Source: Desulfobacteraceae bacterium (lineage in GTDB: Bacteria; Desulfobacterota; Desulfobacteria; Desulfobacterales; Desulfosalsimonadaceae). From it: a stretch of DNA of 47,294 nt. The translations under genes and the position numbers were made by a program. The number at the start of each line of letters is the position of its first letter. Positions within the stretch are counted from its first letter, which is position 1. The DNA lies in the NCBI GenBank assembly GCA_027858815.1, contig JAQIBZ010000214.1, positions 1 to 47,294 of the forward strand. The letters run 5' to 3'. Shown piece by piece: positions 5,733 through 47,294 of this stretch. The notes under the pieces were generated by a model, which was given only the letters and a program-made list of their open reading frames with translations, was not told the DNA's origin and searched no databases.

Positions 5733-5745
5733 CAACTGGAACCCT

Positions 5746-21847: not shown

Positions 21848-21926
<79 letters not shown>

Positions 21927-21932
21927 TTAAAT

Positions 21933-21980
21933 CAGTCAGTCAGTCAGTCAGTCAGTCAGTCAGTCAGTCAGTCAGTCAGT
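21933..21980. repeat. Perfect tetranucleotide microsatellite (CAGT)12
   Basis: Counted directly: 12 uninterrupted CAGT units beginning 8 nt after the tRNA CCA end. Confidence 0.95.
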
Positions 21981-22055
21981 TAAAACTTTACCTTGAGGAA
22001 AATTTATCGTAATTAAAATGTACCGCCTACAAAAATAGCCTCCTTATTCCCTCCC

Positions 22056-26597: not shown

Positions 26598-28123
26598 TTT
26601 TGTCCGACCTCCCATCGCCCTTGCTTCCGCGACCCGATACGGTGCAAAATTCCGGCTTTCTTGAGTTTCTGAATATGCCGTTTGATGGTCGAGGCGCTTA
26701 CCCCCACCTTTTCCGCCAATTGAAGATAATCGCTTTGCGGATCTTTCCGGATGGCAGTTATAAGGTCAGCATGGATTTTTAAAAGGTCATTTATCGGGTC
26801 ACCCTGACCTTTTATGTGACCTTTTACCCTTTGTTTTTCCGCGATATCACCTGTGGCTTGTGGGCTTAAAGGTCTATTTATAAGTTCAAACTGACCTTTT
26901 ACCTGTTGAATGGTGGTTTGCAAATAATCATCCGTGACCTTAAAAATCGGTTCCACTCCCACCGCCTTCAACGCCGGCACAACCTTGGTTCGCACCCCCA
27001 TGCCTCGGGCGTCCACATACCCATAATCCCTCAGCACTTCCACAATGATATGATTCCTGGCCGAACGTTGACCGGCAAGCATTTTATCAATGGTCATGGC
27101 ATTGGGCAGTGCGCCGGGGCTGATAATTTCAAGGCGGTTTTTATATCCGACGATTTCAACATCCACAAATCGGGACCAATCCCGGTGGGCCAGGGCATTA
27201 ACCAATAATTCCCGAAGGGCTTCGTAGGGATAAAACCAGATTTTTTCCCGCCGGAAATTTTCGTCAATGCTGTCGGGTTCCAAGGTCACAAAAGGTTCCA
27301 TTGTTTCCAGGGTTTTTTCGATCAAGCCAGCGTCGATGAGTGTTTTTCCGGCTTTTCCCACCTGAAACCGTCCCACCAAAGGGGCATCTATCACTTTGTC
27401 CAGCCGAGCCTGATATTCTTTGTCCAGCGAGTCAAAAAACATGAGTCTGACGCCGGAATGTTTCAATGTCTGCCGGGGTTTGACGCCAAACAGCACCAGT
27501 CCGGCGATGGTGCAAACCGGTGCATCCGCAACGCTGTCCGTCATAAACCCCAAAGCTTTCAGTCGGTCAATCCAGGCATTTCTTTCACCAGGCACTTCCG
27601 GGTCCCGCAGAATATCTCGCAGATAGTTCTCCAACCGGGCCATATCCAGAGAATCAATGGACGTGCGGTTTACCGGCATAATTTCCGGGTGCACCGCACC
27701 GGAAGCCGCACCAAGCATTAAAAGTTGTTCCCGGGAGGCCGGCCGGGTCACACTGCCGATCCGTACATAGGCTGTTTCCCGGTCATTGGCCCTTACCACA
27801 TAGGGTTTGAAGATTTCGGGGCCGATGGTGATCACGGCCACCCGACGGCCCTCCCCCATGGCGACTTCTTCGTAATAGGGCAGAATCTGCGGATGCACAT
27901 ACCGGCCAAATACCGTATCCGCCACCCATTCGCTTAAGTTCTTGCGAAAAATGCCCGAGATGGTTCCGTCATCTTCCACGCCCAAAAGAATGCGGCCGCC
28001 TTTGAGATTGGCAAGGGCCACAATTTCCCTGGCCAACTGCTCGGGCCGGATGTCATCCCGCTTGAATTCAACGCCGGAATTCTCGCCATTGGCTATCAGG
28101 TCAAAAATGTCTTGTTTTTTCAT
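26594..28123 (-). CDS. AlbA_2 / Schlafen-like divergent-AAA protein with HATPase_c_4-like middle and C-terminal wHTH
   Basis: N-terminus IANGENSGVEFKRDDIRPEQLAREIVALANLKGGRILLGVEDDGTISG (AlbA_2-type). Middle is EALRELLVNALAHRDWS...LEIISPGALP. C-terminus is LQLAEKVGVSASTIKRHIQKLKKAGIL. AGGAGC RBS upstream. Confidence 0.7.
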   Translation of the reverse strand: MKKQDIFDLIANGENSGVEFKRDDIRPEQLAREIVALANLKGGRILLGVEDDGTISGIFRKNLSEWVADTVFGRYVHPQILPYYEEVAMGEGRRVAVITIGPEIFKPYVVRANDRETAYVRIGSVTRPASREQLLMLGAASGAVHPEIMPVNRTSIDSLDMARLENYLRDILRDPEVPGERNAWIDRLKALGFMTDSVADAPVCTIAGLVLFGVKPRQTLKHSGVRLMFFDSLDKEYQARLDKVIDAPLVGRFQVGKAGKTLIDAGLIEKTLETMEPFVTLEPDSIDENFRREKIWFYPYEALRELLVNALAHRDWSRFVDVEIVGYKNRLEIISPGALPNAMTIDKMLAGQRSARNHIIVEVLRDYGYVDARGMGVRTKVVPALKAVGVEPIFKVTDDYLQTTIQQVKGQFELINRPLSPQATGDIAEKQRVKGHIKGQGDPINDLLKIHADLITAIRKDPQSDYLQLAEKVGVSASTIKRHIQKLKKAGILHRIGSRKQGRWEVGQK

Positions 28124-28172
28124 TGAGCTCCTCTTGTCGACGACAAAAGATAGAAGAGAGACGCATAACGAA

Positions 28173-29186
28173 TCATAAGGTCTTCTCCATCATTTCCACT
28201 AATGCCATTTCCAGGCGTTCATCTTCTTCATCCTGCAGGCTGAGATAGAGAGAAAAATGGTCCACGCGATTGTTTTTTACAAACAATGCCGGGTCATACC
28301 GCCACAACTCTATGCGGCAAGTACCTGTGTCTTCAACAGGAATCTGCTCAACCCGGTCCGCGAGCTTTTTCCAGTCACGGCGGCCCAATGCATAGACCGG
28401 TTCATTCGGCGGAACCAGCATACTCAGGTCCGCAAGTGCGATTTCGCCCGCTTTCATCCGCTGATCTGGCGGCAGATGATCCTCCTTTATACGGAGTATT
28501 TTACGCACCGGGGTACGCAAATACGGCAGGGCTTCCTGCCACAAGGTGCGTCCGTCAGTGGGAAAATCAAGCAACCGTTCACGGCCTTCACGGGTTATTT
28601 GACCCAAACCGCTTCCTTCGATCTCATCCAGCGCCCGTGTCATAGACATTCCGGCATAACCCAGTTTGCCGGCCAATTCCTTGGGGGTGGTCGGTGTTTT
28701 TATCCCGCCATTGAGCGCATAAATCAGAACCGCCTGGGTCGCCGGTGTGAACGTTTCCGTTTTAGCCGGTGCCCTTGCTGTTTTTCGGGCTTGCGCAGCA
28801 ACCCCCAATTCCGGCCAATACAACTGTTGTCCGGGTATCACAAAAGGAATATGCCGTTCGATCAAACGGCGACGGGTGTATCCCGGCAACTCCTGAGCAA
28901 TCAGGCAGAAATCATCAAAAGCATCATTTGCCATGATCTGGCGCAGGTGTTTTTCAAATGCGGCGGGACGAAAGTTTTCGATATCTTTGATCATGATTCC
29001 CAGGAAAGCCCGTTTACCAACAGTGAGTTTCCGCAACGCATATTGTTGATTCAAGTAGTGAGGCAATGGTCTGGATACAGCTTTGCCCCAGGTGACAGGC
29101 ATGCCGGCCAGCTTAGTGATGTATTCAATAAATCGATGTGCTAAATTTTCCATGAGATATAATAACTTTTTTTTGTACAATAACAT
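28173..29186 (-). CDS. Hypothetical protein with central winged-helix motif (unassigned family)
   Basis: 326-337 aa with TPKELAGKLGYAGMSMTRALDEIEGSGLG as an HTH-like segment. The start is uncertain (29186 or ATG 29153). The long antisense ORF 28257..29144 has an implausible R/C/Q/F-rich composition. Confidence 0.55.
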   Translation of the reverse strand: MLLYKKKLLYLMENLAHRFIEYITKLAGMPVTWGKAVSRPLPHYLNQQYALRKLTVGKRAFLGIMIKDIENFRPAAFEKHLRQIMANDAFDDFCLIAQELPGYTRRRLIERHIPFVIPGQQLYWPELGVAAQARKTARAPAKTETFTPATQAVLIYALNGGIKTPTTPKELAGKLGYAGMSMTRALDEIEGSGLGQITREGRERLLDFPTDGRTLWQEALPYLRTPVRKILRIKEDHLPPDQRMKAGEIALADLSMLVPPNEPVYALGRRDWKKLADRVEQIPVEDTGTCRIELWRYDPALFVKNNRVDHFSLYLSLQDEEDERLEMALVEMMEKTL

Positions 29187-29215
29187 TTAAAAAGTTACTA
29201 TGCAAAATAAATGTT

Positions 29216-29240
29216 TCTAAGTTGTTAAAAACAACTTAGA
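29216..29240. promoter_or_regulatory. Perfect palindrome TCTAAGTTGTT-AAA-AACAACTTAGA
   Basis: 11-bp arms read directly, about 30-60 nt upstream of the wHTH gene start candidates. Confidence 0.5.
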
Positions 29241-29256
29241 TGGCCGGATTTTAAAT

Positions 29257-29281
29257 AGTTAATTGCGATCGGCAATTAACT
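29257..29281. promoter_or_regulatory. Perfect palindrome AGTTAATTGC-GATCG-GCAATTAACT
   Basis: 10-bp arms read directly, in the same intergenic region. Confidence 0.5.
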
Positions 29282-29305
29282 TAAAGCATAAACATGCAAC
29301 ATCTT

Positions 29306-29633
29306 TTAGAGTTTGAATAAGCGCATGGCCTGATCCACCAGTTTGGTGGTACGGGCGTCAATCCTGGCCTCGTTCCAATCTGTTTCGGAAGCCAAGTCCC
29401 CATTTGGTTTCAGTCCATTCTTATAACCAATCCCCCGGACCGATGCGTTTTTCCGGTGCTTAGTCGCCAAGGGCCAGGAGTTCAGACAACTCGGCCTGCA
29501 GGCCTGGTATCACTGCTTCAAACTGTCAGTCGCGGTCCGGCCAAAGTATGCATGCCGGTGCTACTTGAATTTCCGGGTTATAAATGGCAGCACTCCGGAT
29601 CGCTTCCGTTAATATTTCATTCACCAATGTCAT
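29306..29633 (-). pseudogene. Decayed N-terminal remnant of a second pglZ fused to an unidentifiable C-terminal fragment
   Basis: Minus-strand translation from ATG 29633 gives MTLVNEILTEAIRSAAIYNPEIQVAPACILWPDRD*QFEAVIPGLQAELSELLALGD*APEKRIGP. It aligns with the intact PglZ N-terminus (MRVLDHLLKAVRDAAVFNPEVQSAPACILWPDRDRQWEAIIPYLQNELPELFVLGEYAPDNQKGP). The two in-frame stops fall where R and Y are expected. The rest, in another frame, reads GIGYKNGLKPNGDLASETDWNEARIDARTTKLVDQAMRLFKL* and ends at 29306. Confidence 0.75.
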
Positions 29634-30295
29634 GCCAGAGCCTCAAGGCGATTTAACCAGTCATTGAATAACGGGCATTCGCCGCGCATTTTATCCAAAC
29701 CGATTTCCAGCGCAGCCAGTGAACCATGTATCGGTTTATCATATTCTGAATAAATCCTTATGATGCGTTTGCTCGGGGCCGTTTCAGGGTTATCATTGAT
29801 TTCCTCCGGTGAATCAAATTTTTCCCGTATACCTCTAAAGCGACGTTCCAGCTCGTTTCGGTCGATACCTTGCGCCAATGCGGCCGGGTCACTGAATAAA
29901 AGCGCCTCGAATTCATGCATCTGTATGTAGGGAATAAAGCGGCGCAGAGGATCTTTTGTCAATTTCTCCTTTAAGGCATCAGAAAGCATATGCAGCAGGC
30001 AGTCCGACTTCTCCTGACTGTTGATTTTCTGTTGTGATTCCGTTTTCCCGGGGAAGTTGTTGGGTAGGCCATAGAAATCAAAAAAAGTCGTACAGTAGGC
30101 GTCCGGATCACCTTGTAGCCGGATGCGCAGATCCGTCAGAAGCCGTTCAAATTTAAAATTACCCCCTTTATGCCCGGGTTTTCCGATCAGAGATGGATAA
30201 AGATAGATGTCACGAGAAATAAAATAGTTGGCGAGCACTTGGTGAATGAACATTTCCTCGGTTTGGCCTTCGCAGATCACATGCACCCTAATCAT
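29630..30295 (-). CDS. DUF4276-like protein (predicted Toprim-like partner of the upstream ATPase)
   Basis: Starts MIRVHVICEGQTEEMFIHQVL. ATGA overlap with the ATPase stop (30292-30295) and ATGA overlap of its own stop with the pglZ remnant start. The family name is from memory of this N-terminal motif and the ATPase pairing. Confidence 0.6.
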   Translation of the reverse strand: MIRVHVICEGQTEEMFIHQVLANYFISRDIYLYPSLIGKPGHKGGNFKFERLLTDLRIRLQGDPDAYCTTFFDFYGLPNNFPGKTESQQKINSQEKSDCLLHMLSDALKEKLTKDPLRRFIPYIQMHEFEALLFSDPAALAQGIDRNELERRFRGIREKFDSPEEINDNPETAPSKRIIRIYSEYDKPIHGSLAALEIGLDKMRGECPLFNDWLNRLEALA

Positions 30296-31404
30296 TTGGT
30301 CGGCCTCCCCCCCAAAATGTTCTTTTCCCAAAGTTCACCGACCGAGTATTCCTCCAGCCATGTTTTAAAGTCTTGTTCAGAATATTGCTTGAAGATCGTC
30401 TCTCCTTGTTCCCTCTCAACTATAACAAGGTCATCGATTGAAAATTCATTAACCAAAGGCACGGACTGAGTCGAGACGATCAATTGCATCCGTTTTGAGG
30501 CCGAGCGCAGCAGGCCACCCAATAGGGAAATGGCATATGGATGGAGGCCGAGCTCCGGTTCGTCGATAATAATCGTGGAAGGCGGGTCCGGTTGCAACAA
30601 TGCCGTAACCAGGCAAATAAACCGGATGGAGCCATCTGATAACTGGTTTGGCCAGAATGCATAATCACTGTCTTTTTGCCGCCAGAGAAGCCGGATCTGT
30701 TGTTCTTCTGATTCAAGTGATTGTGGCTTGAGAACAAAGTCATCAAAAAAAGGTATGGCAAGGCGTGTGGTTTTGCGGATCTGCTGGTAGACTTTGGGGT
30801 GTTCCTTATTCAGTCGATATAAAAAGGCAGACAGGTTGGATGCATCTGATCGTAGATATTCATTATCATGAAGCGAGCCAATTCGTTTAACTCCAGCGGT
30901 GTCGCTGGTATCATGGAAATGGTAGACTTTCCAACTGGAAATGGAGCTGTAGCAATAATCCGCCACGCTTCCTTTATTCAATTTTTCGAATTCTTCCTTG
31001 AGTTTTGCTTCCAGGTGTCCGGCACCTAATTTTATCCATTTAGGCCCGTAATGTGGTCCCTTGAAGAATAATTCCTCATTTGCAAAAGAGAACCCGCCGT
31101 CAATCGTAGGTTCAAGCGTGAATCTGTATCCATTCAATGCGAATTCGATGAAAGACTCAATCTTGCTCGTTTCCTTCACCCCAAAGCTGACAATACGGTC
31201 TGACGATCCCTGATTGCGCGTCCAGCTTTGCTGCCGGCCTTCGACCATCTCGCCGAGCATACGAAAATAGGAAACGAAATTGCTCTTACCGGCACCATTG
31301 GCGCCGATCAGCACATTTAAGTTTCCGAGCGTAAATTTTTCAAGGTTCCTGATGGATTTGAAACCTTTGATGGTCAGCCGGTCTATTTCTTTTTTTGTGC
31401 TCAT
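30292..31404 (-). CDS. ABC/SMC-like AAA ATPase (AAA_15/AAA_21-type)
   Basis: Walker A LIGANGAGKSNF, signature-like QLSDGSIRF, Walker B/D-loop TIIIDEPELGLHP. ATGA overlap with the pglX stop. Confidence 0.8.
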   Translation of the reverse strand: MSTKKEIDRLTIKGFKSIRNLEKFTLGNLNVLIGANGAGKSNFVSYFRMLGEMVEGRQQSWTRNQGSSDRIVSFGVKETSKIESFIEFALNGYRFTLEPTIDGGFSFANEELFFKGPHYGPKWIKLGAGHLEAKLKEEFEKLNKGSVADYCYSSISSWKVYHFHDTSDTAGVKRIGSLHDNEYLRSDASNLSAFLYRLNKEHPKVYQQIRKTTRLAIPFFDDFVLKPQSLESEEQQIRLLWRQKDSDYAFWPNQLSDGSIRFICLVTALLQPDPPSTIIIDEPELGLHPYAISLLGGLLRSASKRMQLIVSTQSVPLVNEFSIDDLVIVEREQGETIFKQYSEQDFKTWLEEYSVGELWEKNILGGRPTK

Positions 31405-34400
31405 GATCCCGCCTCCCGTGCGGCGCTTTTTTCAGCCAGCCTTAAATGATGGTCATTGATACGGTCACCTTTGTTGCCGCCATATTGGGGGCCAAGATGA
31501 TACCAAGGAGCGGATTTTACATCCTTGCCCCGGTCTTTTTTCCAGTGGATATTGGGCTTGTCGCGTAAACACCCGGCGCCGCGTTTACCCAAATCGGGAA
31601 CGGACATGAAGGGACGGATATTGAGACGAACACCGTCGTTTAGATCCGGGTTCCAGCCCATGGGTTGTTTTTCGATGGGTTTCCAGCGGACAAAGATATC
31701 ATAGGGAGCTTCTCCTTCGAGAATCAGCTCCAGTTTTTTCTTTAATGATTCAGCCGCAGCCAATTTTTCCTGAGCACCATCAATGCCGTTTGCAATATCC
31801 TGTTTCTGGCGGGTGATCCAATCGCCCAGATAGGTATAGATCAGGGTTTCCAGGTTTTTGTAATCCAGTTTGTGATAATTCACAAGAGCAGCAAACCCGT
31901 CATGCATTCCGTCCCAGATATGCCAGATAAAAGGTCGGTGGTGGAATAGCTTGCAATGCTGAATAAAAAATTTGTCTCGCAGCCAGGTATCCAGGGTTTT
32001 GCCTACATGGTCGCTATTTTTAAGGAGCTGGCCAAGCCAATTTTGAAAAGTGGCAGTGGAAGCGGCATCCTGCCGCTTTTTATCAAGAGGCTGGAAGCCT
32101 CTTCCACTTTCCCACACAGCGGCCAAGAGATTGATCAACCGGTCAGCGGCGGAAGATTCGCCGCGCAATGGCGAAATACAGACAATGCCGTCTTCATCGG
32201 CAAAAGGCAGTAGCTCCCTTGTTTGCTCCACCCAGGCACGGGATTCATCAGAAAGTTCCATAGTGGAAGCGCCATCCTGGCGCTTGTTTTCAAGCGGCTG
32301 GAAGCCGCTTCCACTCTCCAGTTCCGCAGGCCATCGGTAACCAAGGAGGCAAGCAACAGCAACCTGCAAAACAGTAGCATCAGTGCGCAATGTAGAAGCG
32401 ACTTCCAGTCGCTTTTTCTCTTCATCCCAGATCACCGAGCCGCTTGGGTGGCCATGGAAAATCCATTGGGTGGGGTCGTCGGAGTATGGTTTTGGCAGGC
32501 CGTTGGGGTATTTTTCTTCGGCGACCTTGGTCCAGTGGTCGAGGTCGAATGGGACTTTGGTTATTGTTGCAGCCGTTACTTTAAGGGATTGATCGACAGC
32601 GCGAACATTGTCATGAAAATCACTCGATTCAACATATGCCCATATTACTGGAATGGCGCTATTATTCGTTGGGCAAATAGGACATACGTTATCATCAAAA
32701 GCTGAACCTGAATATAAAAATGGCTCTAATTTTTTCATTTTGTTCACAACCACGCCTTTACGATTGAAAACATTTTGACCATGCAACCTACATCCAAGTT
32801 GAGAGTTCAGTTCAACGTCATCTAATGGGACCTTGCAGACTTGCCCACGCCCTGACCAGGGCGATAACCCGTTTGGAGAATTAAGCCAGTAAACATGTGT
32901 ATCAGCGACTTTTGGAAACTCCCAAAAATTCATTAAAAATCTTGGGCAATCTCCGGTAGTGCTTCCTTTACCGTAATCAGCCACATTGGCTAATAAAACT
33001 TCATTTGAAAGATCATCAAACACCACCCTTGCATCTGGATTATCCAATTGTTTGGCCTGTTCCACGCCTTTGATTTCACTTGTCAATAATCCCGTGGCTT
33101 TTTCTTCGGCATTATATGGTTCAGAGACATCCAGGCCGTAAAAGTAACCAGATCTGGGCGACATAGCTACTTCTTCACCCCGACTCAATGAAATCAGAAT
33201 TGCCTTAACCACTTCTCCACTAATTGTCTCAAACGCCCCAGACCCTAATCGTGCAATCAAATGCCAGGTATCGTTTTTAAGTAATTTTTCTCTGAATTTC
33301 TTGTAGCTGGTTAAAAACAGCCAGTTCTGCGGAAGCACAATACTCGTGGAGCCACCCTTTTTAGACAATTCCAGACAACGATCCAGAAACACAGTCGCCA
33401 AATCGTTTTTGCTTTTCGGGTAATGTTTTTCACTAAATTTTCTTAGCGTTTCACCTTGCTTGCCCCTCTTCAGATAAGGCACATTGGTAATCATCCAATA
33501 ATATTTACCAGCCAAAATCTGCGCGGCCTTTGCCAATCCCTGAGCAGTCACGCCGATTTCCCGCTCCTCGAACGCCCGATCTTTTTGCAAAACTGTTTCA
33601 ACAGCCGTGGCCAGTCCATCCCACTGCACCAATTTTGCCACGGCAGTGCGCATGGGATCAATCAAACTGCCAAGCACAGGCGCATATTTAAACTCCTCAT
33701 AAAGGCCGACCAGGGCCAGGCGAAGCTTGGAGTCCCCATTAGCCAATTTTTCCCATTCGGATCGGGGCACACTCACGGACAATCCGGAACATGCCACATT
33801 CATTTCCGGTAATTGACGGTAACCACCAGAGTCAGGATACTTCCATGCCTCGATCGCCAAGGCAAAGGCAGCCAATTCCACACAGCGTTTGTCAATTTCT
33901 AGGCCATGGATATTTTCCCGCAGCACCGCATCCACTGCCTCACGGACGGTCAGGTCTTCGAGTTCTATACGCATGGGCACCAGCATTAAAAAAGCCGCTA
34001 CCAGGAAATGGCCAGACCCACAGCAGGGGTCAAGGGTTTTAAGTTCACTTAAATACTTCGGCCACCCGCCAAATGTGCCGGCAGCTGGTTGCCAAATAGT
34101 GGAAGCGGCATCCTGCCGCTTTTTATCAAGCGACTGGAAGTCGCTTCCACTTCCACTTCTCTTACAAGCAGAGTGCCCCCTGATATACAGCCTTATTTTC
34201 TCCAATTGCGCCGGATTCCGGACAATATGATCGAAAGATTCCTTTTGCCAAAAAACACCGCTTCTTCGTGCTGCCTTATTAATTTCGTTTGCAGTGAATG
34301 ACTTCCATGAATGAAGAATCCCTGAGAGATCATGTCCACCCTTGGGAGTTACCAAGACATGGATATGATTGGGCATTACCACGAAATCATCCAGGTCATA

Positions 34401-35576
34401 ACGATCACCGTCAAAATGTTTTAACGCATTTTCAACGATCGTTTTATATTCAGCGTGTTTGAGCAAACATTCGCCATAACCCTGATCGAGCCATTTTTGG
34501 ATACGGTTGGAAAATTTTTCATAGAACTCTTTTTTTGTTTTTTCATCGTGAGGTTCAGGATGCTGTTTTAGCCACTCGTCTTTTTCAGTTTGCCATGATT
34601 TCAGCTTTTCCTGTGGGAGAGAATCGGAGGTTCGGAAAGTGACAAAGTAGGTAACGCCTTCCTGTCTCCAATGAGGAAGATTTCCTGAAAGGTTGGCTAT
34701 CTCTTCGTCTTTATGGAAATAGTCGATTTCTTTCAAGCGGCTGGAAGCCGCTTCTACTTTCACAAACCGAAGGTATTCCAAAGGCACACCAGGAAGGGAT
34801 GCTTTTTGACGAAGTTCTTCTTCTGTTTGTGCATTTTTCAGATCAGCTTCACTTAAGCGCCTTGCCGCCCACCAGGCCCCCAAAGAATTATCCAAAAGAA
34901 AAGACACCATATAGGGTTCTGTAAAAAGCTGGGTCACCGCCGGGAGTTCCCGGGCGCCGATCTTTACTTCTGATGCGTTGACCTCTTCCTTCTTCTTGGC
35001 CTGCCAGAACTGATATACCCAGCCCAAGGAATCAGAAGCAGTAAAAACATCTACTGATAAATCGGCTATGAGGCGCTCCAACCTTTGCTGGTGTTCCGGC
35101 GGTAGTGTGAGTTGAAACACTGGTGAATCGATCCGGAAAATCTGGGGCAACATGCGCGCGGCATATTTTGCTGCCAGTTCCCACCCATTTTTGGCACCTT
35201 CATCATGGGCCAGATCTTCACAATCCTGAAGGGTAACAGGGACCGGATCATCCGGGTCCGGATACATGAGCAGGTTGTTTTCTGCTAAAAATCGAGCAAA
35301 TAGCATGCGGTGCCAGTGCTCATAAGCCACTTCTTCAATGAGCCTCTCAATCTCTTGAACTTGAGTATCACCGTTGCGATTATCACCCAACTGACGGCCA
35401 TGGGCACGCAATTGAACCCTCAGTTTCCGATCATCTTCAGTAAGATGTGAAAATGGCTTGGCCTCGCCCACGCCAAGTTGATTTAAGGATGCATTGGCCG
35501 CTTCCTCGGCGATGTCCCGGGCGTCCTTGACAGTACGTTCCAGTTTGTTTCGGAGTGCTTTTTCCAGTGGCTGCAT
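31401..35576 (-). CDS. pglX: BREX N6-adenine DNA methyltransferase PglX, 1391 aa, with in-frame RAYT and REP insertions
   Basis: PglX-type N-terminus with motif I LDPCCGSGHFLV and motif IV MITNVPY. GAGG RBS lies 5 nt upstream of ATG 35576. The ORF is uninterrupted despite the insertions listed separately. Confidence 0.85.
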   Translation of the reverse strand: MQPLEKALRNKLERTVKDARDIAEEAANASLNQLGVGEAKPFSHLTEDDRKLRVQLRAHGRQLGDNRNGDTQVQEIERLIEEVAYEHWHRMLFARFLAENNLLMYPDPDDPVPVTLQDCEDLAHDEGAKNGWELAAKYAARMLPQIFRIDSPVFQLTLPPEHQQRLERLIADLSVDVFTASDSLGWVYQFWQAKKKEEVNASEVKIGARELPAVTQLFTEPYMVSFLLDNSLGAWWAARRLSEADLKNAQTEEELRQKASLPGVPLEYLRFVKVEAASSRLKEIDYFHKDEEIANLSGNLPHWRQEGVTYFVTFRTSDSLPQEKLKSWQTEKDEWLKQHPEPHDEKTKKEFYEKFSNRIQKWLDQGYGECLLKHAEYKTIVENALKHFDGDRYDLDDFVVMPNHIHVLVTPKGGHDLSGILHSWKSFTANEINKAARRSGVFWQKESFDHIVRNPAQLEKIRLYIRGHSACKRSGSGSDFQSLDKKRQDAASTIWQPAAGTFGGWPKYLSELKTLDPCCGSGHFLVAAFLMLVPMRIELEDLTVREAVDAVLRENIHGLEIDKRCVELAAFALAIEAWKYPDSGGYRQLPEMNVACSGLSVSVPRSEWEKLANGDSKLRLALVGLYEEFKYAPVLGSLIDPMRTAVAKLVQWDGLATAVETVLQKDRAFEEREIGVTAQGLAKAAQILAGKYYWMITNVPYLKRGKQGETLRKFSEKHYPKSKNDLATVFLDRCLELSKKGGSTSIVLPQNWLFLTSYKKFREKLLKNDTWHLIARLGSGAFETISGEVVKAILISLSRGEEVAMSPRSGYFYGLDVSEPYNAEEKATGLLTSEIKGVEQAKQLDNPDARVVFDDLSNEVLLANVADYGKGSTTGDCPRFLMNFWEFPKVADTHVYWLNSPNGLSPWSGRGQVCKVPLDDVELNSQLGCRLHGQNVFNRKGVVVNKMKKLEPFLYSGSAFDDNVCPICPTNNSAIPVIWAYVESSDFHDNVRAVDQSLKVTAATITKVPFDLDHWTKVAEEKYPNGLPKPYSDDPTQWIFHGHPSGSVIWDEEKKRLEVASTLRTDATVLQVAVACLLGYRWPAELESGSGFQPLENKRQDGASTMELSDESRAWVEQTRELLPFADEDGIVCISPLRGESSAADRLINLLAAVWESGRGFQPLDKKRQDAASTATFQNWLGQLLKNSDHVGKTLDTWLRDKFFIQHCKLFHHRPFIWHIWDGMHDGFAALVNYHKLDYKNLETLIYTYLGDWITRQKQDIANGIDGAQEKLAAAESLKKKLELILEGEAPYDIFVRWKPIEKQPMGWNPDLNDGVRLNIRPFMSVPDLGKRGAGCLRDKPNIHWKKDRGKDVKSAPWYHLGPQYGGNKGDRINDHHLRLAEKSAAREAGS
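32056..32107 (-). repeat. REP copy A (52 nt, two hairpins plus closing stem) inside pglX
   Basis: GTGGAAGCGGCATCCTGCCGCTTTTTATCAAGAGGCTGGAAGCCTCTTCCAC, translated in frame as SGRGFQPLDKKRQDAAST. Confidence 0.85.
32263..32314 (-). repeat. REP copy B inside pglX
   Basis: GTGGAAGCGCCATCCTGGCGCTTGTTTTCAAGCGGCTGGAAGCCGCTTCCAC. Both stems differ from copy A by compensatory changes. Translated as SGSGFQPLENKRQDGAST. Confidence 0.85.
34099..34150 (-). repeat. REP copy C inside pglX, directly downstream (gene sense) of the RAYT domain
   Basis: GTGGAAGCGGCATCCTGCCGCTTTTTATCAAGCGACTGGAAGTCGCTTCCAC, translated as GSDFQSLDKKRQDAAST. Confidence 0.85.
34173..34679 (-). mobile_element. REP-associated tyrosine transposase (RAYT, IS200/IS605-like HUH-Y1) domain read in frame within pglX
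   Basis: LPHWRQEGVTYFVTFRTSDSLP...DDFVVMPNHIHVLVTP (HUH)...SWKSFTANEINK...VFWQKESFDHIVRN...RLYIRGH (candidate catalytic Tyr). No own ATG or RBS is visible. Confidence 0.75.
34731..34757 (-). repeat. Half REP (second hairpin only) upstream (gene sense) of the RAYT domain
   Basis: TTTCAAGCGGCTGGAAGCCGCTTCTAC matches the right half of copy B with 1 difference. It is read in a different frame, as VEAASSRLK. Confidence 0.75.
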
Positions 35577-36038
35577 AACACCTCAGAGTTGCCGGGAAAG
35601 AATCCCGGCCTACGATGACGAATTCTTTTTTGGTAGGTCGGGATTTCATTCCCGACATTGATCTGCATTAAAATTTACGTTTTTATTGCAACATTCATTG
35701 CGCGTGAGCATTAAAATGCGCATTTAATGGCTTTTTAATGATGGATTCACATTAAATGTCACATTAAACCAATTTTAATGTGATCGGGAATGTGAATTCA
35801 CATTCGGTTCATCAAATGGTCCGAAACCATTTTGCGGGCCATTTAAAAAAAATTGGCCCTACATCGGCCCGGGTGCAATTATCGGTGCACTTTCATGGAT
35901 ATTTGCACATTTTAAGAGTTGGTCAAATGGTACAAATCCATTCTTGAACCATTGTTTGATTAAAATGGACCAAAAAATGGCGCAATACCATTGCGGGTAA
36001 TCCGACCCCCTTTCCGGGCGGTTCGCATAACGCAGCTC
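35577..36038 (-). promoter_or_regulatory. 460-nt non-coding region between brxC and pglX, dense in palindromic operator-like sites; probable internal promoter/regulatory region
   Basis: No ORF of 60 aa or more. Three AAATGG-N7-CCATT sites (35814-35832, 35925-35942, 35975-35992). Perfect palindromes at 35759-35783 and 35788-35805 share TCACATT half-sites. Hairpins lie just upstream of the pglX RBS. Confidence 0.6.
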
Positions 36039-39000
36039 CTATTTAATCGCAATCGGTCCCTGATTCAAGGCAGACCTGAGCAGTTGTCCTGTTTCCTTGA
36101 TCCATGCGTCAATATCATCATCTGTTTTAAGGGTTCGCCGGGGAACTTTGACGAATTTAACTTCCGGCTCCATTAAAACGGCGGCGGCTTCAATGACTTT
36201 GTCAAACCGGGAGGACATGGCCGCCACCCGATCAATTAACATAGGCAACGGGAATTTTCGTAATGTGACCAGTACATCATTTGTGGTCTGTACATTTATC
36301 TCCGGTTTTGTTTTTTCCGTCAGCATTTGTTCTGACAGGAGATGATTGCGTTGCTCCGGTTCCAGTTGTTTCCAGTTGTCATCTTCTCTTAACCGGTTCA
36401 TACCGTTTTCGTGATTTTTCTGATATTGCGCGTCCAGATCATTTAGCGCGTCGCGCAGGGTCTGGGTCACATTTAAGATCAAGGGCGACACCGGGTCCGG
36501 ATCGGACAGCAACAGGCGCTGTTCTTCAACTTTGGCCACCTGGGCGGAATAGACGTCCCCATCTTTTAATTCCCGGGCCTGGGTAAGCAGCGCTTTGAGG
36601 GTTTCCCATGCCGGGAGGCGTTTTTCAATGCGGTCTGCCAAATCTTTCCATTGATCAATGGCCCGGAAAAATTCATCGCGCTGGGTATAAATCGCCAGTA
36701 ACTGTTCGTTGCCGGCCAGCAGGCGGATTTCATTTAATGCGGACGTATCCGGCAAAACGGGTTTGGGCGCATCACCCCCGGCACACGATGCCAGATTCAA
36801 CAGTTTATCAATAAATTGCGGGGCCATGATGAGTTCTTCCCCGGATTTGGCCTGGCAGCCGATTTTTTGCATGACTTTACGGATCTGAATGCGCTGGGCC
36901 GTTGTCACGGTGGTCGCCTCAATTTTATACAGGGCTTTTCCCATGGCTTTGCGTTCCAGCTCACGCGGATCAACGGGCTTGCCATGATCGTCCGCGGCGC
37001 GAATCAGGCCGGCCACCAGAAGCACCTGCAGCCCGCCGTCCACCGCATCCCGGGACCACCCAAAGGGCGGGGTTTCAAAGTGCTGACGGAGTTCCGCCCC
37101 TTTTTTCCCGCTGCCGATAGCACCCATAATGGCTTTACACACCGGGTTATTGGAAGCTTCATCGTCAAAACCCACTGCTTTTAAAGCATCTGGTGCACCT
37201 TTCTTAGCATTTGAATAGACTTTGTCCCATCCTTTATGGTCTGATATTTGAAATTGATCATAAAGGCGAATTAAGGCATTTTTTGCAGCTTCAAGGACCA
37301 TTTCTTGTAAGTTGTTTCCAATGATTTCATTGCCACCACCCTGAAAAACACGGGCACCTGAAAACGCTTCTCCCAAAAGTTCATTTATTTTTGCTTCTGC
37401 ACTCTGACGGGTAGTTTTCATTGCAGAACGTGCTTCCTGGCCTTCCGGAGTATTGGGCACCCCTCGAATTTCCAGAGTGGAATGAGCTGCTTTATAAACA
37501 AGCAAATTGTGCCTGAGATCATCCGCAGAACGTCTGGGTATATAGACAAACACCGTTGGCGAGTGATTCCCAGCCTGCCGGGCATCTGCGAGAACTGTAT
37601 TTTCAGGGTCACGCCAACCGTCTCTGATCCAGATATAAATTTTCTGAGTGTGATCACTCGGCAATTGTGCGTCAAAAACCGGAAAAATATCGCGACTGAC
37701 AATGGAAGTGCCCTGAGTAAGGGATAATTTTTTGACTAATATTGAAAATCCTGCACGGATGCGATCAACCCGCTCTGCCTCAATACGATGGGCTGTATTT
37801 GCCAATTGACTGCGTTGGTTTTGAAATTCATCATTCCATGCTGCGCTTTCTTCTGTCTGGATGCGGTATTCATCCCCGACTTTCATTAAAAGTTCACATT
37901 TATCAAGTAAAGCAGGAAGTTTGTTTCGCAGGTTGCTACTGCCTACTGAAAGATCATCCACCATTAAATCGGCAATAGAATCGATGGTTGCCTTGATTCC
38001 GATTTCGTTGTTTTTCCCCCCCAACTTATTGATCAGAAAAATAATCCCACATGCACGGGACGTACATCTTTCATCTGCCGTTCCGCTGACCCATTTCATG
38101 GTCTTTTCATGAATTTTTCGTGGCAGGATACGGGATTGGAGCAACTTATCCGCTGAGTCAAAATATAAATAATCCGCCGGCACGACATTTCCTAAGGGCT
38201 CATCCAGATTGCTCTGGATCACTTTATGGATCATGCTGAGCTGATTACGGAGCTGGCTTTCGGTTCCGGTTTGATCCAGCACCCGCAGCGTGTTTTCCCA
38301 AAAGCGTCGGCGGACCGGAAGAATAGGGTAATCCTTTTCAAAACAGGGAATATCATCCTGATGATGGCCGATGGTTGTGCCTGCTAAATGTCTGGAGATT
38401 TCTCCGAGATTCGTTTCCATTTTCTTTTTTATAAGCGGAATGGCTTCAGCGGTTTTGGCTAAAACGACCTTTCGGATGACAGTGTCCACATCAGTATCAG
38501 ACAATTCAATGCGGACCGTAAAACGGCCTTCAAGTTTTTTCAGATTGCGCGTCCCGGTGACGGCAGTTTGTCCGGTCCCCACAAATAAAAGTTTGCCGCC
38601 GATCTGCTTACAGCATGCTTCCACCACTTCCTGAACGGCATTGGAACGCTCAGGGTCTCCCTCTCCGATATATTGCTGCACTTCATCAAGGGCAATGAGC
38701 GATAGGGGGAACTTTCCATCACGAGTCAAGGCATCCCGAATGCTTTTAATCATTTCATCATTGCTGATATCCGAAACATTTGGATACAGACGGGTCATGA
38801 TTTCAACAGCGCTGTTATCTCGAGAAAATACTTTCGGCTTAACTACGCAAAGGGCTTCATATAAGCCTTCGGCAACATGAAAATTGTCAATTTCGGTCTG
38901 CCAGTTATATCCGTTATTTTCAACATGCTTGCAGATTTCATCATAAATGCCTTCTGATTTAAGCCACATGACAAAACGTGCTACCGGGTATTGTTCCGGC

Positions 39001-39482
39001 AGGCCGACTGATTTAAATATGATTCTTATCAATGCCAAACGCACGCTGCCACTGGCACCGGCACCCAATGTGCCGGATGCAGCATGAAGTCCGCCATGTC
39101 TTTTGCCCTGCGTGGATAGTTCTTTGAGAAGTTCTTTGATCGAATTTGGAAGGGTAGCGATTCCGCGAGCGGACGCACCGTCTTCAAATGTGGTATCTGC
39201 CCAGAGAGCACGGAGCATTTTTACAAGATGAGACTTTCCAGAACCAAAAAACCCGCTTACCCAAACACCCGGCTGTTCCGCCTGATCGATATTGCTCGAA
39301 TAAGTTTGGAGAATATGTGCCAATCCTTTTTCATATTGACCATCACAAACAAAGGTATCGAGTTCGTATCGGAGGACTGATTGGGCCTGGGTGGTCATAT
39401 CATCATTGACGTTTGCCACGCCCTGATTAATCAGTTTCTGGGTGGACGGATCTTTTAGATAAATGGCTCTGTTTTTTATCAT
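36039..39482 (-). CDS. brxC: BREX P-loop ATPase BrxC/PglY
   Basis: 1147 aa with Walker A GFFGSGKSHLVKML near residue 80. Size and position between brxB and pglX fit BrxC. Confidence 0.85.
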   Translation of the reverse strand: MIKNRAIYLKDPSTQKLINQGVANVNDDMTTQAQSVLRYELDTFVCDGQYEKGLAHILQTYSSNIDQAEQPGVWVSGFFGSGKSHLVKMLRALWADTTFEDGASARGIATLPNSIKELLKELSTQGKRHGGLHAASGTLGAGASGSVRLALIRIIFKSVGLPEQYPVARFVMWLKSEGIYDEICKHVENNGYNWQTEIDNFHVAEGLYEALCVVKPKVFSRDNSAVEIMTRLYPNVSDISNDEMIKSIRDALTRDGKFPLSLIALDEVQQYIGEGDPERSNAVQEVVEACCKQIGGKLLFVGTGQTAVTGTRNLKKLEGRFTVRIELSDTDVDTVIRKVVLAKTAEAIPLIKKKMETNLGEISRHLAGTTIGHHQDDIPCFEKDYPILPVRRRFWENTLRVLDQTGTESQLRNQLSMIHKVIQSNLDEPLGNVVPADYLYFDSADKLLQSRILPRKIHEKTMKWVSGTADERCTSRACGIIFLINKLGGKNNEIGIKATIDSIADLMVDDLSVGSSNLRNKLPALLDKCELLMKVGDEYRIQTEESAAWNDEFQNQRSQLANTAHRIEAERVDRIRAGFSILVKKLSLTQGTSIVSRDIFPVFDAQLPSDHTQKIYIWIRDGWRDPENTVLADARQAGNHSPTVFVYIPRRSADDLRHNLLVYKAAHSTLEIRGVPNTPEGQEARSAMKTTRQSAEAKINELLGEAFSGARVFQGGGNEIIGNNLQEMVLEAAKNALIRLYDQFQISDHKGWDKVYSNAKKGAPDALKAVGFDDEASNNPVCKAIMGAIGSGKKGAELRQHFETPPFGWSRDAVDGGLQVLLVAGLIRAADDHGKPVDPRELERKAMGKALYKIEATTVTTAQRIQIRKVMQKIGCQAKSGEELIMAPQFIDKLLNLASCAGGDAPKPVLPDTSALNEIRLLAGNEQLLAIYTQRDEFFRAIDQWKDLADRIEKRLPAWETLKALLTQARELKDGDVYSAQVAKVEEQRLLLSDPDPVSPLILNVTQTLRDALNDLDAQYQKNHENGMNRLREDDNWKQLEPEQRNHLLSEQMLTEKTKPEINVQTTNDVLVTLRKFPLPMLIDRVAAMSSRFDKVIEAAAVLMEPEVKFVKVPRRTLKTDDDIDAWIKETGQLLRSALNQGPIAIK

Positions 39483-39488
39483 TTTTCC

Positions 39489-40040
39489 TTAGTACTCCTT
39501 ATCCGCTGTTATCGGTACGGCCAGATAATTCCAGCCATCATAGCCATCAAGTAATCTGTAATTATTGTTTTCATAGCTGCCTGGAAAAAAGACGACTAAT
39601 TTACCTTCGACCAAAGGGGCCAGTTGATCGACCACGTCTTTGACTTTTAAAAATCCAAAAAGAGACCCAACACCTTTTACAGCAACGACTGTATTGGCAT
39701 CTGCTTTGTTTTCCATTAAAAATTCTTCAAACTGATTTGTAATGAATGCCATATAACCCGGCAGGTGCGTTGAAAGAAGTTCGGGGTTTTTAAAATAACT
39801 TTTTGCATAGGGTTCATTAGAAAGCCAATTTGCAAAGGAATCGGTTAAATCAAAAACATGCCAGTTGTGCCCGGCTGCTTTTGTCACGAGCTCAAATTCT
39901 TCGATTCTTGCCCTGAGTTTTAATTCGTCATTTTCATTATAAACACAGAAAATTACCCGCTGCATCGGTGCCGCATCACTTCTCCAGGGTATGGAGATAA
40001 ATTTGTTATATGACTGTATCAACCGTTTAATTTTGCTCAC
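39489..40040 (-). CDS. brxB: BREX protein BrxB (DUF1788)
   Basis: 183 aa with ISIPWRSDAAPMQRVIFCVYNENDELKLRARIEEFELVTKAAGHNWHVFDLTDSFANWL, the DUF1788 pattern as I remember it. It overlaps the brxA end by 14 nt. Confidence 0.8.
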   Translation of the reverse strand: MSKIKRLIQSYNKFISIPWRSDAAPMQRVIFCVYNENDELKLRARIEEFELVTKAAGHNWHVFDLTDSFANWLSNEPYAKSYFKNPELLSTHLPGYMAFITNQFEEFLMENKADANTVVAVKGVGSLFGFLKVKDVVDQLAPLVEGKLVVFFPGSYENNNYRLLDGYDGWNYLAVPITADKEY

Positions 40041-40815
40041 GTATCCAATCCATTTCCTGAGTGGTTAATAGGCTGGGAAACAACAATTCCATTACATTGC
40101 CGATGCGTTTAAACACGATCCATCCTTTTTGGGATGCGATTTCCGCCAGTTCAATGGTTCGATGTGATGGACAGTCAAGCAGGCGAGTATATTCTGAATT
40201 GAATAAAGATTCACCGCGCAACCCGGAGAGATAACCTAAAAGTAAAGCATAGGCTGCTGCGCCTGGCGTTGGAATCGCCTTTGTGCGTATTTTCTTAACC
40301 TTCCCGGTGAGATGGCCGGATTTGGTAAATGATGAATTGATATTCTGGGCAACAGATTTAAGCGTTGCTTTGCTGAAACGATCAGATTCTTTGTCGTCTA
40401 TGAATTCTTCCAATGCTTCCCGGCGGATTATGTTGCCTTCCGAAAAATTCAAAATAAAAGGCGTACTGGAACTTAAAATAGAATCCCTTGCGTAAGCACA
40501 GAGCAGTGCAATCAAAGGTCGCCCTCCTTTATCCCGTTGCCAGAAAAACCGGAGAACCCGGAACAGGGCAATTGAAGGATCTAATGCATATAAGTCTGCC
40601 AAATGCCGCGCAGTTAATTGCCTTGTTCTGACGGATCTCTTTTTCAGGCAGTTATCGTTTATGATTGAGGAAAAATATTCGTCTTTCGAAGCCGCTGGAT
40701 CGGCAACTGCATCAAAAAGCAGATCCAAGTCTTCCAGCATGATCGTGCGAGATGAGTGCGCGCCTCCCTTTGAGAAGCTAAAACCGAATTTTGATAAAAG
40801 TTCTTCTTTTTTCAC
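40027..40815 (-). CDS. brxA: BREX protein BrxA (DUF1819-like)
   Basis: 262 aa, first gene of the operon directly upstream of brxB. The assignment rests mainly on position and size; sequence recognition is weaker. Confidence 0.65.
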   Translation of the reverse strand: MKKEELLSKFGFSFSKGGAHSSRTIMLEDLDLLFDAVADPAASKDEYFSSIINDNCLKKRSVRTRQLTARHLADLYALDPSIALFRVLRFFWQRDKGGRPLIALLCAYARDSILSSSTPFILNFSEGNIIRREALEEFIDDKESDRFSKATLKSVAQNINSSFTKSGHLTGKVKKIRTKAIPTPGAAAYALLLGYLSGLRGESLFNSEYTRLLDCPSHRTIELAEIASQKGWIVFKRIGNVMELLFPSLLTTQEMDWIREQN

Positions 40816-41187: not shown

Positions 41188-41331
41188 CTTGGGGTCACCC
41201 ATTAAAGGACGGGTCACCCTTGATTTTTGATTATAACAGCCAAGGTTGCTGGGGTCGGACCAAGCCAACTGCAGAATTTTAATGAATAACATCCAAAAAG
41301 CAGGCTTTTTTAACCCTATATCGCACTTTTT
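41188..41331. repeat. Direct repeat, copy 1 (partner at 47171-47294)
   Basis: 41220-41331 equals 47183-47294 with one C/T difference (41272/47235). CTTGGGGTCACC (41188-41199) also matches 47171-47182. Copy 1 has an extra 20 nt that duplicates GGGTCACC. Confidence 0.9.
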
Positions 41332-41515
41332 GCTCCCAAAAAAACGAGATATAAAAAAGGCACACCCGCCATATAAAGTACTATAATGCTCTTTTTGCCT
41401 TTAAAAAAGTCAATATAGCCTCAATTTTACTGATTATTTTAAGCGTATACGATTTAAATCCAAACAGTTAGCGTGGTCCGACCCCGATCGCACAATTTAA
41501 AATTACAAAATCAAA

Positions 41516-47170: not shown

Positions 47171-47294
47171 CTTGGGGTCACCTTGATTTTTGATTATAAC
47201 AGCCAAGGTTGCTGGGGTCGGACCAAGCCAACTGTAGAATTTTAATGAATAACATCCAAAAAGCAGGCTTTTTTAACCCTATATCGCACTTTTT
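47171..47294. repeat. Direct repeat, copy 2 (truncated by window end)
   Basis: See copy 1. It starts 7 nt after the activator stop codon. Confidence 0.9.

Follow-up and report, generated by a model that had tools for sequence, protein, structure and literature searches.

A 47,294-nt stretch of DNA from a Desulfobacteraceae bacterium (contig JAQIBZ010000214.1 of assembly GCA_027858815.1; this whole stretch is hereafter called the window, and all positions are counted along it) carries a bacteriophage exclusion (BREX) locus of type 1 whose adenine methyltransferase gene, pglX, raises the question of why a complete transposase domain should be read in frame inside a defence protein, and whom it serves. 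The domain is related to the REP-associated tyrosine transposases (RAYTs), enzymes of the HUH/Y1 type, and is enclosed by repetitive extragenic palindromes (REPs) of its own. A first-pass annotation, made from the letters alone, had hesitated between a selfish insertion that survived by preserving the frame and a domesticated nickase of single-stranded DNA (ssDNA). The analysis described here indicates that the block is probably a selfish, translated, in-frame unit of RAYT and cognate REPs (a REPtron, living here as a "domain-parasite") and not a BREX effector.

A RAYT domain and its REPs in the reading frame of pglX

The host protein has an MmeI/Eco57I-like core, and the Pfam families Eco57I, N6_Mtase and MmeI_Mtase all match it. 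The PADLOC PglX model PDLC02528 gives 1717 bits, in a match that is split at profile position ~272, i.e., at the insertion point. The NCBIfam model BREX_1_MTaseX (NF033452) yields 339 bits in three stretches, under its curated cut-off of 500, a shortfall that is attributed to the subfamily and to the inserts and not to a different protein. The additional block spans 220 codons (aa 274-493 of the 1391-aa open reading frame, ORF) and maps exactly to positions 34098-34757, where all the motifs quoted by the first-pass annotation were found again. It starts about 45 residues past methyltransferase motif X (TEPYMVSFLLDNSLG, aa 219-233) and ends 21 codons before motif I, which binds S-adenosylmethionine (SAM); motif IV (NVPY) lies downstream and the ORF stays open, as had been described.

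The PglX frame is read through the block from residue 273 to residue 494. The block has no stop codon, no ribosome-binding site and no in-frame ATG near its start, and its sole methionine is that of VVMPNH. It can therefore be produced only as an internal domain of PglX. Besides the HUH motif and the predicted catalytic tyrosine (Table 1), it contains the further RAYT motifs LPHWRQEGVTYFVTFRTSDSLP (aa 300-321), SWKSFTANEINK (aa 423-434) and FWQKESFDHIVRN (aa 442-454). The Pfam family Y1_Tnp (PF01797) matches with 34.8 bits when the block is searched alone and with 30.8 bits in full-length PglX (gathering cut-off 23), which bears out the proposed Y1 transposase identity, the NCBIfam RAYT model staying below its own cut-off (see below). 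An AlphaFold model of the block, computed from a 40-sequence alignment, reaches a mean predicted local distance difference test (pLDDT) score of 81. In a fold search of the PDB with this model, the best match is the E. coli TnpA_REP in complex with a REP hairpin (4ER8; E 5e-6, probability 1.00), and behind it come 29 IS200/IS605 TnpA chains, among them IS608 and ISDra2 TnpA; a single-sequence PDB search with the block yielded no more than a marginal match to 4ER8 (E 0.042). After the first strand of the RAYT domain, the model contains an extra helical hairpin of about 45 residues.

The REPs that enclose this domain follow a single plan, a 5' GTRG tag being followed by a perfect stem of 8 bp with a TCC loop. 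Read along the coding strand, the block has GTAGAAGCGGCTTCCAGCCGCTT at its start and, at its end, the doublet GTGGAAGCGACTTCCAGTCGCTT-GATAAA-AAGCGGCAGGATGCCGCTTCCAC; its left flank is thus a forward GTAG REP and its right flank a doublet ending in an inverted GTGG REP. The two flanking REPs announced by the first-pass annotation are therefore genuine: VEAASSRLK (aa 274-282) is the left REP, the closing REP is a doublet, and both fold as DNA hairpins. Three more in-frame REP units further downstream in pglX had been overlooked. Altogether the window holds eight REP monomers in five places, all eight within pglX, and the REP pattern has seven matches over the 47 kb where 0.03 would be expected by chance. 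DNA hairpin folding z-scores of the REP units range from -4.9 to -7.6, and no stop codon occurs in any of the six frames of the monomer in its GTGG form. In a set of 221 REP monomers, 189 have all five free stem pairs complementary, with 17 different stems; part of this set comes from a scan pattern that fixes two of the five pairs, so that three pairs are fully free for those members.

As for the surroundings of the block in the folded protein, Salmonella PglX consists of an N-terminal helical bundle (1-227) followed by an MmeI-like methyltransferase region (227-661) with GxG at 315-317, and has an MmeI-like linker but no nuclease (PMC11341690). A model of residues 1-900 of the PglX studied here is weak (pLDDT 62, predicted template modelling score 0.47), with low confidence at 276-308 and 473-492, the linkers encoded by the REPs; short strands at 271-276 and 492-497 frame the insert. 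REP sites in PglX fall in indel-rich alignment columns and in low-confidence segments of this weak model. These features are compatible with an autonomous domain emerging from a loop. Of the autonomous domain on a surface loop that the first-pass annotation proposed to look for, the fold of the block is modelled and its borders are defined by an empty allele (see below); a place on a surface loop would fit the indel-rich columns and the low-confidence linkers.

Distribution among pglX alleles and other host proteins

Two related BREX loci from Joint Genome Institute (JGI) metagenomes, L001 and L002, show the filled and the empty site, respectively. They share 94% identity through brxA, brxB, brxC and the initial 815 nt of pglX; at this point L001 continues with REP-RAYT-inverted REP, and L002 has only GGCAAGGACGGCAAA, a 5-codon linker. 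The comparison reveals no target-site duplication at the borders of the insert. Past the insertion site, identity is about 87% (85-89%), and in the specificity region about 500 nt are without detectable DNA similarity, so that pglX alleles are mosaic. The accessory genes 3' of pglX also differ between the two loci.

More broadly, a RAYT is found at exactly the same loop, between ..YLRFVK and W.PAAGTF.., in 23 of the 120 closest PglX clusters, the carriers being at 54-70% identity. The 22 clusters other than that of the window come from NCBI, JGI, ENA and Logan, and keep the frame throughout. The arrangement is hence not unique to this genome, contrary to what the first-pass annotation implied. 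This recurrence comes in part near the counter-evidence that it had named, a conserved native segment of PglX, yet the segment is clearly foreign to PglX. Two RAYT lineages occupy the loop, each with its own cognate REP. Type-A RAYTs go with the REP GTRGAAGCGGC.TCC.GCCGCTT and the flanking peptides VEAASSR and KRQDAAST, and type-B RAYTs, as in the locus L004, have the same architecture with another stem, the REP being GTAGCCAGACCATCCTGGTCTGGC and the flanking peptides VARPSRSG and PDQDGLAT.

Relationships were assessed with neighbour-joining distance trees without support values, of which only the coarse pattern is used. In the tree built from the N-terminal region of PglX, carriers turn up here and there between insert-free alleles; carriers and their insert-free sisters are 85-99% identical in this region, closer than many pairs of carriers, and the type-B carrier P0014 is the sister of the type-A carriers P0010 and P0011. 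A single ancient domestication was considered and rejected, as at least type A, a further type-A group, P0027 and type B are seen in the RAYT-core and PglX N-terminal trees, with insert-free sisters interleaved. The HUH motif (PNHxH) and the tyrosine are kept in all 23 embedded RAYT copies. Between the window and L001, two type-A loci, non-synonymous divergence (dN) is 0.178 in the RAYT core and 0.187 in the methyltransferase domain; only dN was compared because synonymous sites are saturated.

Three short matches that pass for stand-alone RAYTs (P0121, P0123 and P0124) resemble pieces of PglX: P0123 begins with RFVKVEAASSR, P0121 begins with the PglX-like MLQPLDKTFRNKVE, and in P0124 the first ~104 PglX residues are joined via REP peptides to the RAYT. 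Contig fragments, deletion derivatives and insertions elsewhere in PglX are possible explanations.

The REPs inside pglX vary from allele to allele as well. The window, L001 and L002 have the same hairpin at the aa-1055 site, and neighbouring synonymous sites differ; in L004, which hosts a type-B RAYT, the same site holds a decayed type-A relic with a GTTG lead and a stem mismatch. The aa-1089 doublet is common to the window and L001, with a compensatory change of the closing pair and a spacer of 6 versus 12 nt, and this site is empty in L002 and L004. The aa-1158 site is occupied by a type-A doublet in the window and by a type-B one in L004, L001 and L002 having none there. All perfect type-A hairpins of these loci lie within pglX, 8/8 in the window and in L001 and 4/4 in L002 and L003, and L004 has six type-B hairpins within pglX plus two palindromic sites in downstream genes. 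Distal cognate REP peptides are present in 18 of 22 RAYT-bearing PglX versus 6 of 93 RAYT-free ones (Fisher p 1.6e-12, ignoring ancestry), and three of these six are sisters of carriers; co-inheritance and recombination between alleles contribute to this association, alongside a presumed spread of REPs within the gene. All 72 distal REP peptides lie downstream of the insert, which may reflect coupling to pglX transcription or translation, or equally an N-terminal domain that tolerates few insertions.

RAYTs are not the only nuclease-type domains to have entered this loop. In P0031, P0039, P0053, P0073 and P0106, a DUF559 (Vsr-like)/MTES_1575 nuclease is inserted in frame at the same place, and the N-terminal region of P0031 shows 99% identity to that of P0013, which has no insert. 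In locus L125, inverted GC-rich palindromes enclose the DUF559 insert (5423-5884), with CCCTCTGGGAGAGGG..GGGGTGAGGG to its left and the reverse complement to its right; they translate as PSPSGRGAGGEG and TPLPEGEG. DUF559 with its palindromes looks like a second class of in-frame nuclease-plus-repeat unit. Since RAYT types and the DUF559 nuclease alternate there, the PglX loop tolerates large inserts and has been occupied repeatedly. In addition, peptides of the PSPSGRGAGGEG, LTPALSQGERG and SPLNPLSINGEG types are seen in many PglX homologues of alignment A1 (P0012, P0020, P0053, P0106 and P0118), in several loops of PglX proteins devoid of DUF559, and appear to be translations of the same GC-rich palindromic repeat; some of these loops hold type-A or type-B REPs in other alleles.

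Beyond PglX, the relatives of the block comprise 8,382 representative proteins at an E-value <=0.001. The best-scoring representatives outside PglX are mostly stand-alone, and the closest named stand-alone copies belong to Planctomycetota, Verrucomicrobiota, Kiritimatiellia, Lentisphaeria and Hydrogenedentota; the type-A REP also occurs in metagenome-assembled genomes of these groups and of Desulfobacterota (at least 120 stretches among the matches listed). Embedding was surveyed in 144 new proteins among the best 150 of the 8,382 representatives. Of these 144, 50 reach a length of 500 aa or more, and in 34 the RAYT has 100 residues or more to either side. In-frame residence is thus common in this RAYT clade and not exceptional, as the first-pass annotation had supposed it to be.

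Twenty-nine of the long hosts were typed with Pfam. They include leucyl-tRNA synthetase (LeuRS, P0301), PriA (P0337), RecG (P0312), the exonuclease VII large subunit XseA (P0266), a Mur ligase (P0249), the carbamoyl-phosphate synthase CarB (P0360), HypF (P0342), a DinG-like helicase (P0270), HsdR (P0246 and P0136), HsdS (P0352), a CARF-adenosine deaminase (P0320), dehydrogenases, a radical-SAM protein and about eleven methylases of the Eco57I/MmeI/N6 type. P0271 is itself a PglX, with the RAYT at the loop that corresponds to the window's aa-1089 REP doublet. All nine hosts whose flanks were read have REP-like flanking peptides of their own. No enrichment of defence or restriction-modification hosts is claimed, because the sample is biased to relatives of a PglX-borne query. 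In the databases, whole PglX::RAYT proteins are labelled "transposase" or "REP element-mobilizing transposase RayT" by NCBI and JGI, and JGI gives several RAYTs of 200-230 aa the name "type I restriction enzyme R subunit", presumably transferred from HsdR proteins with an embedded RAYT.

Weighing the origin and role of the insert

How these observations may fit together can be proposed as follows. A REPtron would have lodged in frame in the variable PglX loop between motif X and motif I, with the REP-encoded peptides acting as linkers of the now internal RAYT domain, and purifying selection would keep this domain catalytically intact. To judge from its sequence, the RAYT would be expected to bind, cut and rejoin its own REP hairpins on ssDNA, and cognate REPs could multiply inside the very gene that encodes their transposase. 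Because PglX must keep working, only those REP copies that keep the frame in tolerant loops would survive. Carriage would be gained and lost among related pglX alleles, via new insertion or via recombination across conserved flanks. The inverted cognate REPs, the replacement of a linker relative to a 94%-identical empty allele, the sporadic carriage and the presence of the clade in housekeeping proteins all favour this selfish, frame-preserving insertion, which was the first of the two readings offered by the first-pass annotation.

The unit combines traits of several known systems. Classical RAYTs are stand-alone, intergenic and usually present once per genome, and their REPs are extragenic. 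Like the REPtrons of E. coli and Pseudomonas (4ER8; PMC2817692, PMC3337134, PMC5581495), the PglX unit has an HUH motif with a single tyrosine, an IS200-like fold, inverted hairpins with 5' GTAG/GTGG tags and REP doublets, and RAYT type and REP sequence co-vary. In contrast to them, its RAYT lacks a start and a stop and is translated inside a 157-kDa host, its REPs are coding too, and it differs from classical RAYTs in its extra helical hairpin and in its score below the NCBIfam RAYT cut-off. In-frame intragenic palindromes have been described as Rickettsia palindromic elements (RPEs) and as GTAG REPs of Opitutus terrae and Thauera; they add 7-30 residues in loops, and their hosts are often repair and DNA-metabolism genes or tRNA synthetases, no in-frame RAYTs being reported (PMC3733652). 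The five pglX REP units resemble them in being in frame, with the ORF open and the sites empty in some alleles; those reports, however, deal solely with non-autonomous repeats, and here the transposase too is embedded and translated with its host, its repeats being concentrated in that same gene.

A selfish nuclease-type insert, in frame at a fixed site of a conserved gene and sporadic among close alleles, also recalls inteins and homing endonucleases. Intein junctions have an N-terminal Cys or Ser and a C-terminal His-Asn followed by Cys, Ser or Thr. By contrast, the insert starts with VEAASS and ends with DAAST followed by IWQP, and it has no splicing residues and no Pfam intein match; it therefore presumably stays in mature PglX. 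Unlike homing endonucleases, it is an HUH/Y1 transposase and not of the LAGLIDADG or HNH kind. With the IS200/IS605 TnpA proteins it shares the Y1 HUH fold, the lack of a target-site duplication and, by analogy, a presumed action on subterminal hairpins of ssDNA. Those elements, however, possess an entire gene with signals of its own, and their entry disrupts the target gene; the block matches the RAYT branch best. Finally, PglX resembles MmeI-type (type IIL/IIG) enzymes in its homologous methyltransferase and specificity modules. In these enzymes the nuclease domain is N-terminal to the methyltransferase (PMC11341690); it is a native domain of the PD-(D/E)XK type, in contrast to the REP-flanked HUH transposase that PglX has between motifs X and I.

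This last comparison bears on the main alternative, namely that the RAYT was co-opted by BREX. It would then nick or capture single-stranded or hairpin DNA of invaders, as a nuclease arm of the system, or rearrange pglX through the in-gene REPs, in phase variation or specificity exchange. The insert indeed sits at the junction where related MmeI-type enzymes join their nuclease domain (PMC11341690), the same loop of other alleles holds the DUF559/MTES_1575 nuclease, and many other hosts of this RAYT clade are restriction-modification proteins. The invariance of the catalytic residues and a dN equal to that of the methyltransferase domain would fit as well, as would the mosaic alleles and the presence of REPs on both sides of the hypervariable specificity region. 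However, the same clade resides in LeuRS, CarB, Mur ligase, HypF and dehydrogenases, where a role for a DNA nickase is implausible. The RAYT always comes with its own cognate REPs, kept as DNA hairpins, which points to these REPs as its substrate, and Y1 HUH enzymes (IS200/IS605 TnpA, TnpA_REP) are hairpin- and sequence-specific. Near-identical alleles, moreover, do without it. As to specificity exchange, REPs bracketing the specificity domain were examined as exchange sites and rejected: REP peptides occur in at least ten loops along the whole of PglX and do not specifically bracket this domain, and the variable block of L001/L002 is not directly bounded by REPs. The domesticated BREX nickase is thus not supported, and we consider it unlikely. 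A selfish insertion is preferred mainly because LeuRS or CarB could have no conceivable use for an ssDNA transposase.

Alternatively, the RAYT could be dead, an inert passenger whose conservation would stem from recent spread among pglX alleles by homologous recombination, with the REPs inherited along. The mosaic alleles speak for this, since L001/L002 identity falls from 94% to ~87% exactly at the insertion site; the RAYT-free alleles L002 and L003 still carry REPs, and the three distal REP sites of the window are common to other alleles, so that none of them need be recent. Yet the embedded RAYTs are 20-30% apart at the protein level, their synonymous changes being saturated, and all keep HUH and Tyr, two unrelated RAYT/REP lineages independently show the same pattern, and REP hairpins stay perfect or change by compensatory pairs. 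An inert passenger is in our view as improbable as a co-opted enzyme.

That the RAYT is an ancestral PglX domain lost in most lineages is far less probable still. Its one fixed position in 23 clusters of 54-70% identity might suggest as much, but the borders are inverted REPs, the 8,382 representative relatives lie outside PglX with the best-scoring ones mostly stand-alone, two distinct RAYT lineages share the site, and carriers stand next to insert-free sisters in the PglX tree. Furthermore, the solved structures of Salmonella and E. coli PglX/BrxX (1205-1225 residues) match the methyltransferase region only (query 610-793). As for an artefact of assembly or gene calling, conceivable in metagenome-type assemblies where repeats are prone to mis-assembly, its probability is next to nil: a 20.9-kb JGI contig of independent origin agrees at 100% across 10,176 nt and three contigs encode the exact protein, so that the read-through, for which the first-pass annotation had named an assembly error as counter-evidence, is no assembly accident, and 22 further PglX clusters from several sources have the same architecture in frame.

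Several points nevertheless weigh against the interpretation of the block as a selfish REPtron, or against parts of it. The NCBIfam model REP_Tyr_transpos (NF047646) gives 61.8 bits for the block and 55.2 bits for the full protein, under a curated cut-off of 80; because of this score, and of a divergent branch with an extra helical insert, the block is called RAYT-like and not an equivalog of the curated family. The placement on a surface loop relies mainly on alignment variability and low-confidence linkers, given the weak PglX 1-900 model. Strong purifying selection on the RAYT is equally expected if it is useful to BREX. About half of the 29 typed long hosts are of restriction-modification or BREX type, and the same PglX loop holds a different nuclease, DUF559, in other alleles; both could hint at a function and not at mere tolerance. 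The association between the RAYT and in-gene REPs ignores shared ancestry and allele recombination, the concentration of REPs in pglX is based on neighbourhoods of 17-47 kb, and the REP-free stretch upstream of the insert may reflect an insertion-intolerant N-terminal domain.

The BREX-1 locus and the meaning of the insertion

The features of the insert and of the surrounding locus are collected in Table 1. The BREX-1 set is complete, in the order brxA-brxB-brxC-pglX-pglZ-brxL (NCBIfam and PADLOC), and with all its genes present and PglX motifs I and IV invariant, the locus looks functional as far as can be read from sequence.

Table 1. Positions of the in-frame REPtron, the other REPs, pglX and the BREX-1 genes in the window
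Feature	Position	Strand	Remarks
Complete in-frame REPtron (left REP, RAYT domain, right REP doublet)	34098..34757, aa 274-493	-	missing from 97/120 closest PglX clusters
RAYT (HUH/Y1) catalytic core	34173..34679, aa 300-468	-	Pfam Y1_Tnp match; model pLDDT 84-98 here
HUH motif H404-I405-H406 (in PNHIHV)	34359..34367	-	invariant in 40 aligned relatives
Predicted catalytic Tyr464 codon (YIRGH)	34185..34187	-	invariant in 40 relatives (alignment A2, block Y191)
Left boundary REP monomer GTAGAAGCGGCTTCCAGCCGCTT, read VEAASSRL	34735..34757	-	-9.0 kcal/mol, z -4.9
Right boundary REP doublet (REPIN-like), read GSDFQSLDKKRQDAAST	34098..34152, aa 477-493	-	-18.8 kcal/mol, z -6.5
Distal in-frame REP monomer, read KRLEVAST	32392..32414, aa 1055-1062	+	pattern match, hairpin fold
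Distal in-frame REP doublet, read GSGFQPLENKRQDGAST	32262..32316, aa 1089-1105	-	pattern match, hairpin fold
Distal in-frame REP doublet, read GRGFQPLDKKRQDAAST	32055..32109, aa 1158-1174	-	pattern match, hairpin fold
pglX, BREX-1 adenine methyltransferase, host of the insertion	31401..35576	-	1391-aa ORF, 157 kDa
SAM-binding motif I of PglX, LDPCCGSGHFLV (includes DPCCGSGHF)	33999..34034, aa 515-526	-	invariant in PglX alignment A1
Methyltransferase motif IV, NVPY	33474..33485, aa 698-701	-	invariant in PglX alignment A1
brxC	36039..39482	-	NCBIfam BREX_BrxC, 913 bits
brxB	39489-40040	-	PADLOC BrxB, 274 bits
brxA	40027-40815	-	PADLOC BrxA, 356 bits
pglZ type B	24249-26615	-	NCBIfam, 936 bits
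brxL	22204-24252	-	NCBIfam, 622 bits

Four extra genes separate pglX from pglZ (26594-31404). Among them is a HEC-01A/B pair, consisting of the HEC-01A ATPase (30292-31404) and HEC-01B/DUF4276 (29630-30331); the interval also encodes a protein of 337 aa that matches no family, and one of 509 aa that has weak matches to N-terminal regions of SIR2-type Argonaute-associated proteins and a C-terminal helix-turn-helix. On the other side of pglX, the spacer to brxC is AT-rich and 460 nt long. It contains several repeats of the CATTAAA/TTTAATG type, which could be regulator sites, and, directly upstream of the pglX start (35591-35656), a REP-like inverted pair of a distinct type, GTAGGCCGGGATTCTTTCCCGGC and GTAGGTCGGGATTTCATTCCCGAC, present once in the window.

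The BREX island abuts a tRNA gene, as a tRNA-Pro (GGG) at 21849-21925 adjoins brxL; it is followed by a (TCAG) microsatellite of ~15 units (21924-21987), 220 nt from the end of brxL. tRNA genes are usual integration sites of genomic islands. The Ffh protein, 86-87% identical to that of named metagenome-assembled genomes, places the host organism in the Desulfobacterales. A search with Rfam found one tRNA only in the window, and nothing in pglX. Beyond brxA, a 114-nt direct repeat, 99% identical between its copies, lies at 41218-41331 and at 47181-47294, the second copy reaching the window end, and GGGGTCGGACCAAGCCAACTG, a 22-nt piece of this repeat, recurs inverted at 41464-41485. Between the two copies lie genes of the SAM cycle and of osmolytes, namely for a sarcosine/dimethylglycine methyltransferase, a PfkB kinase, a SAM synthetase and a sigma-54 activator.

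In a 2026 survey comparing BREX systems (PMC12839542), the terms transposase, HUH, RAYT and DUF559 are absent, and a literature search, with most subscription journals outside its coverage, returned no description of a RAYT within PglX or other proteins. This agrees with the novelty for BREX suggested by the first-pass annotation, and the residence of RAYTs in frame in host proteins appears to be a broader phenomenon that has seemingly gone undescribed.

For the BREX field, roughly one in five members of this PglX subfamily has a 220-residue HUH nuclease domain beside the SAM-binding motif, and other alleles carry a DUF559 nuclease. The insert has to be known before structural or mechanistic work is undertaken, and before a nuclease role is deduced from domain content. 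If the RAYT had been co-opted after all, the DUF559 nuclease at the same loop would be a parallel acquisition, and BREX would have an HUH/Y1 enzyme, joined to its site-reading protein, acting on DNA on its behalf. Annotation is affected in both directions, since whole PglX proteins are mislabelled as transposases and stand-alone RAYTs as a restriction subunit.

For the RAYTs, the finding concerns their way of life. They are regarded as stand-alone, usually single-copy and largely domesticated genes, and their repeats as extragenic. The lineage described here has another lifestyle, in which the whole transposase and its repeats are carried in frame within large hosts and its own expression signals are given up; these hosts span essential enzymes and, very often, restriction-modification and BREX methylases. 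RAYT-driven movement of REPs is hard to show directly. An embedded RAYT under purifying selection, with its cognate repeats in the same gene, offers a natural system in which to ask whether, and how, RAYTs move REPs.

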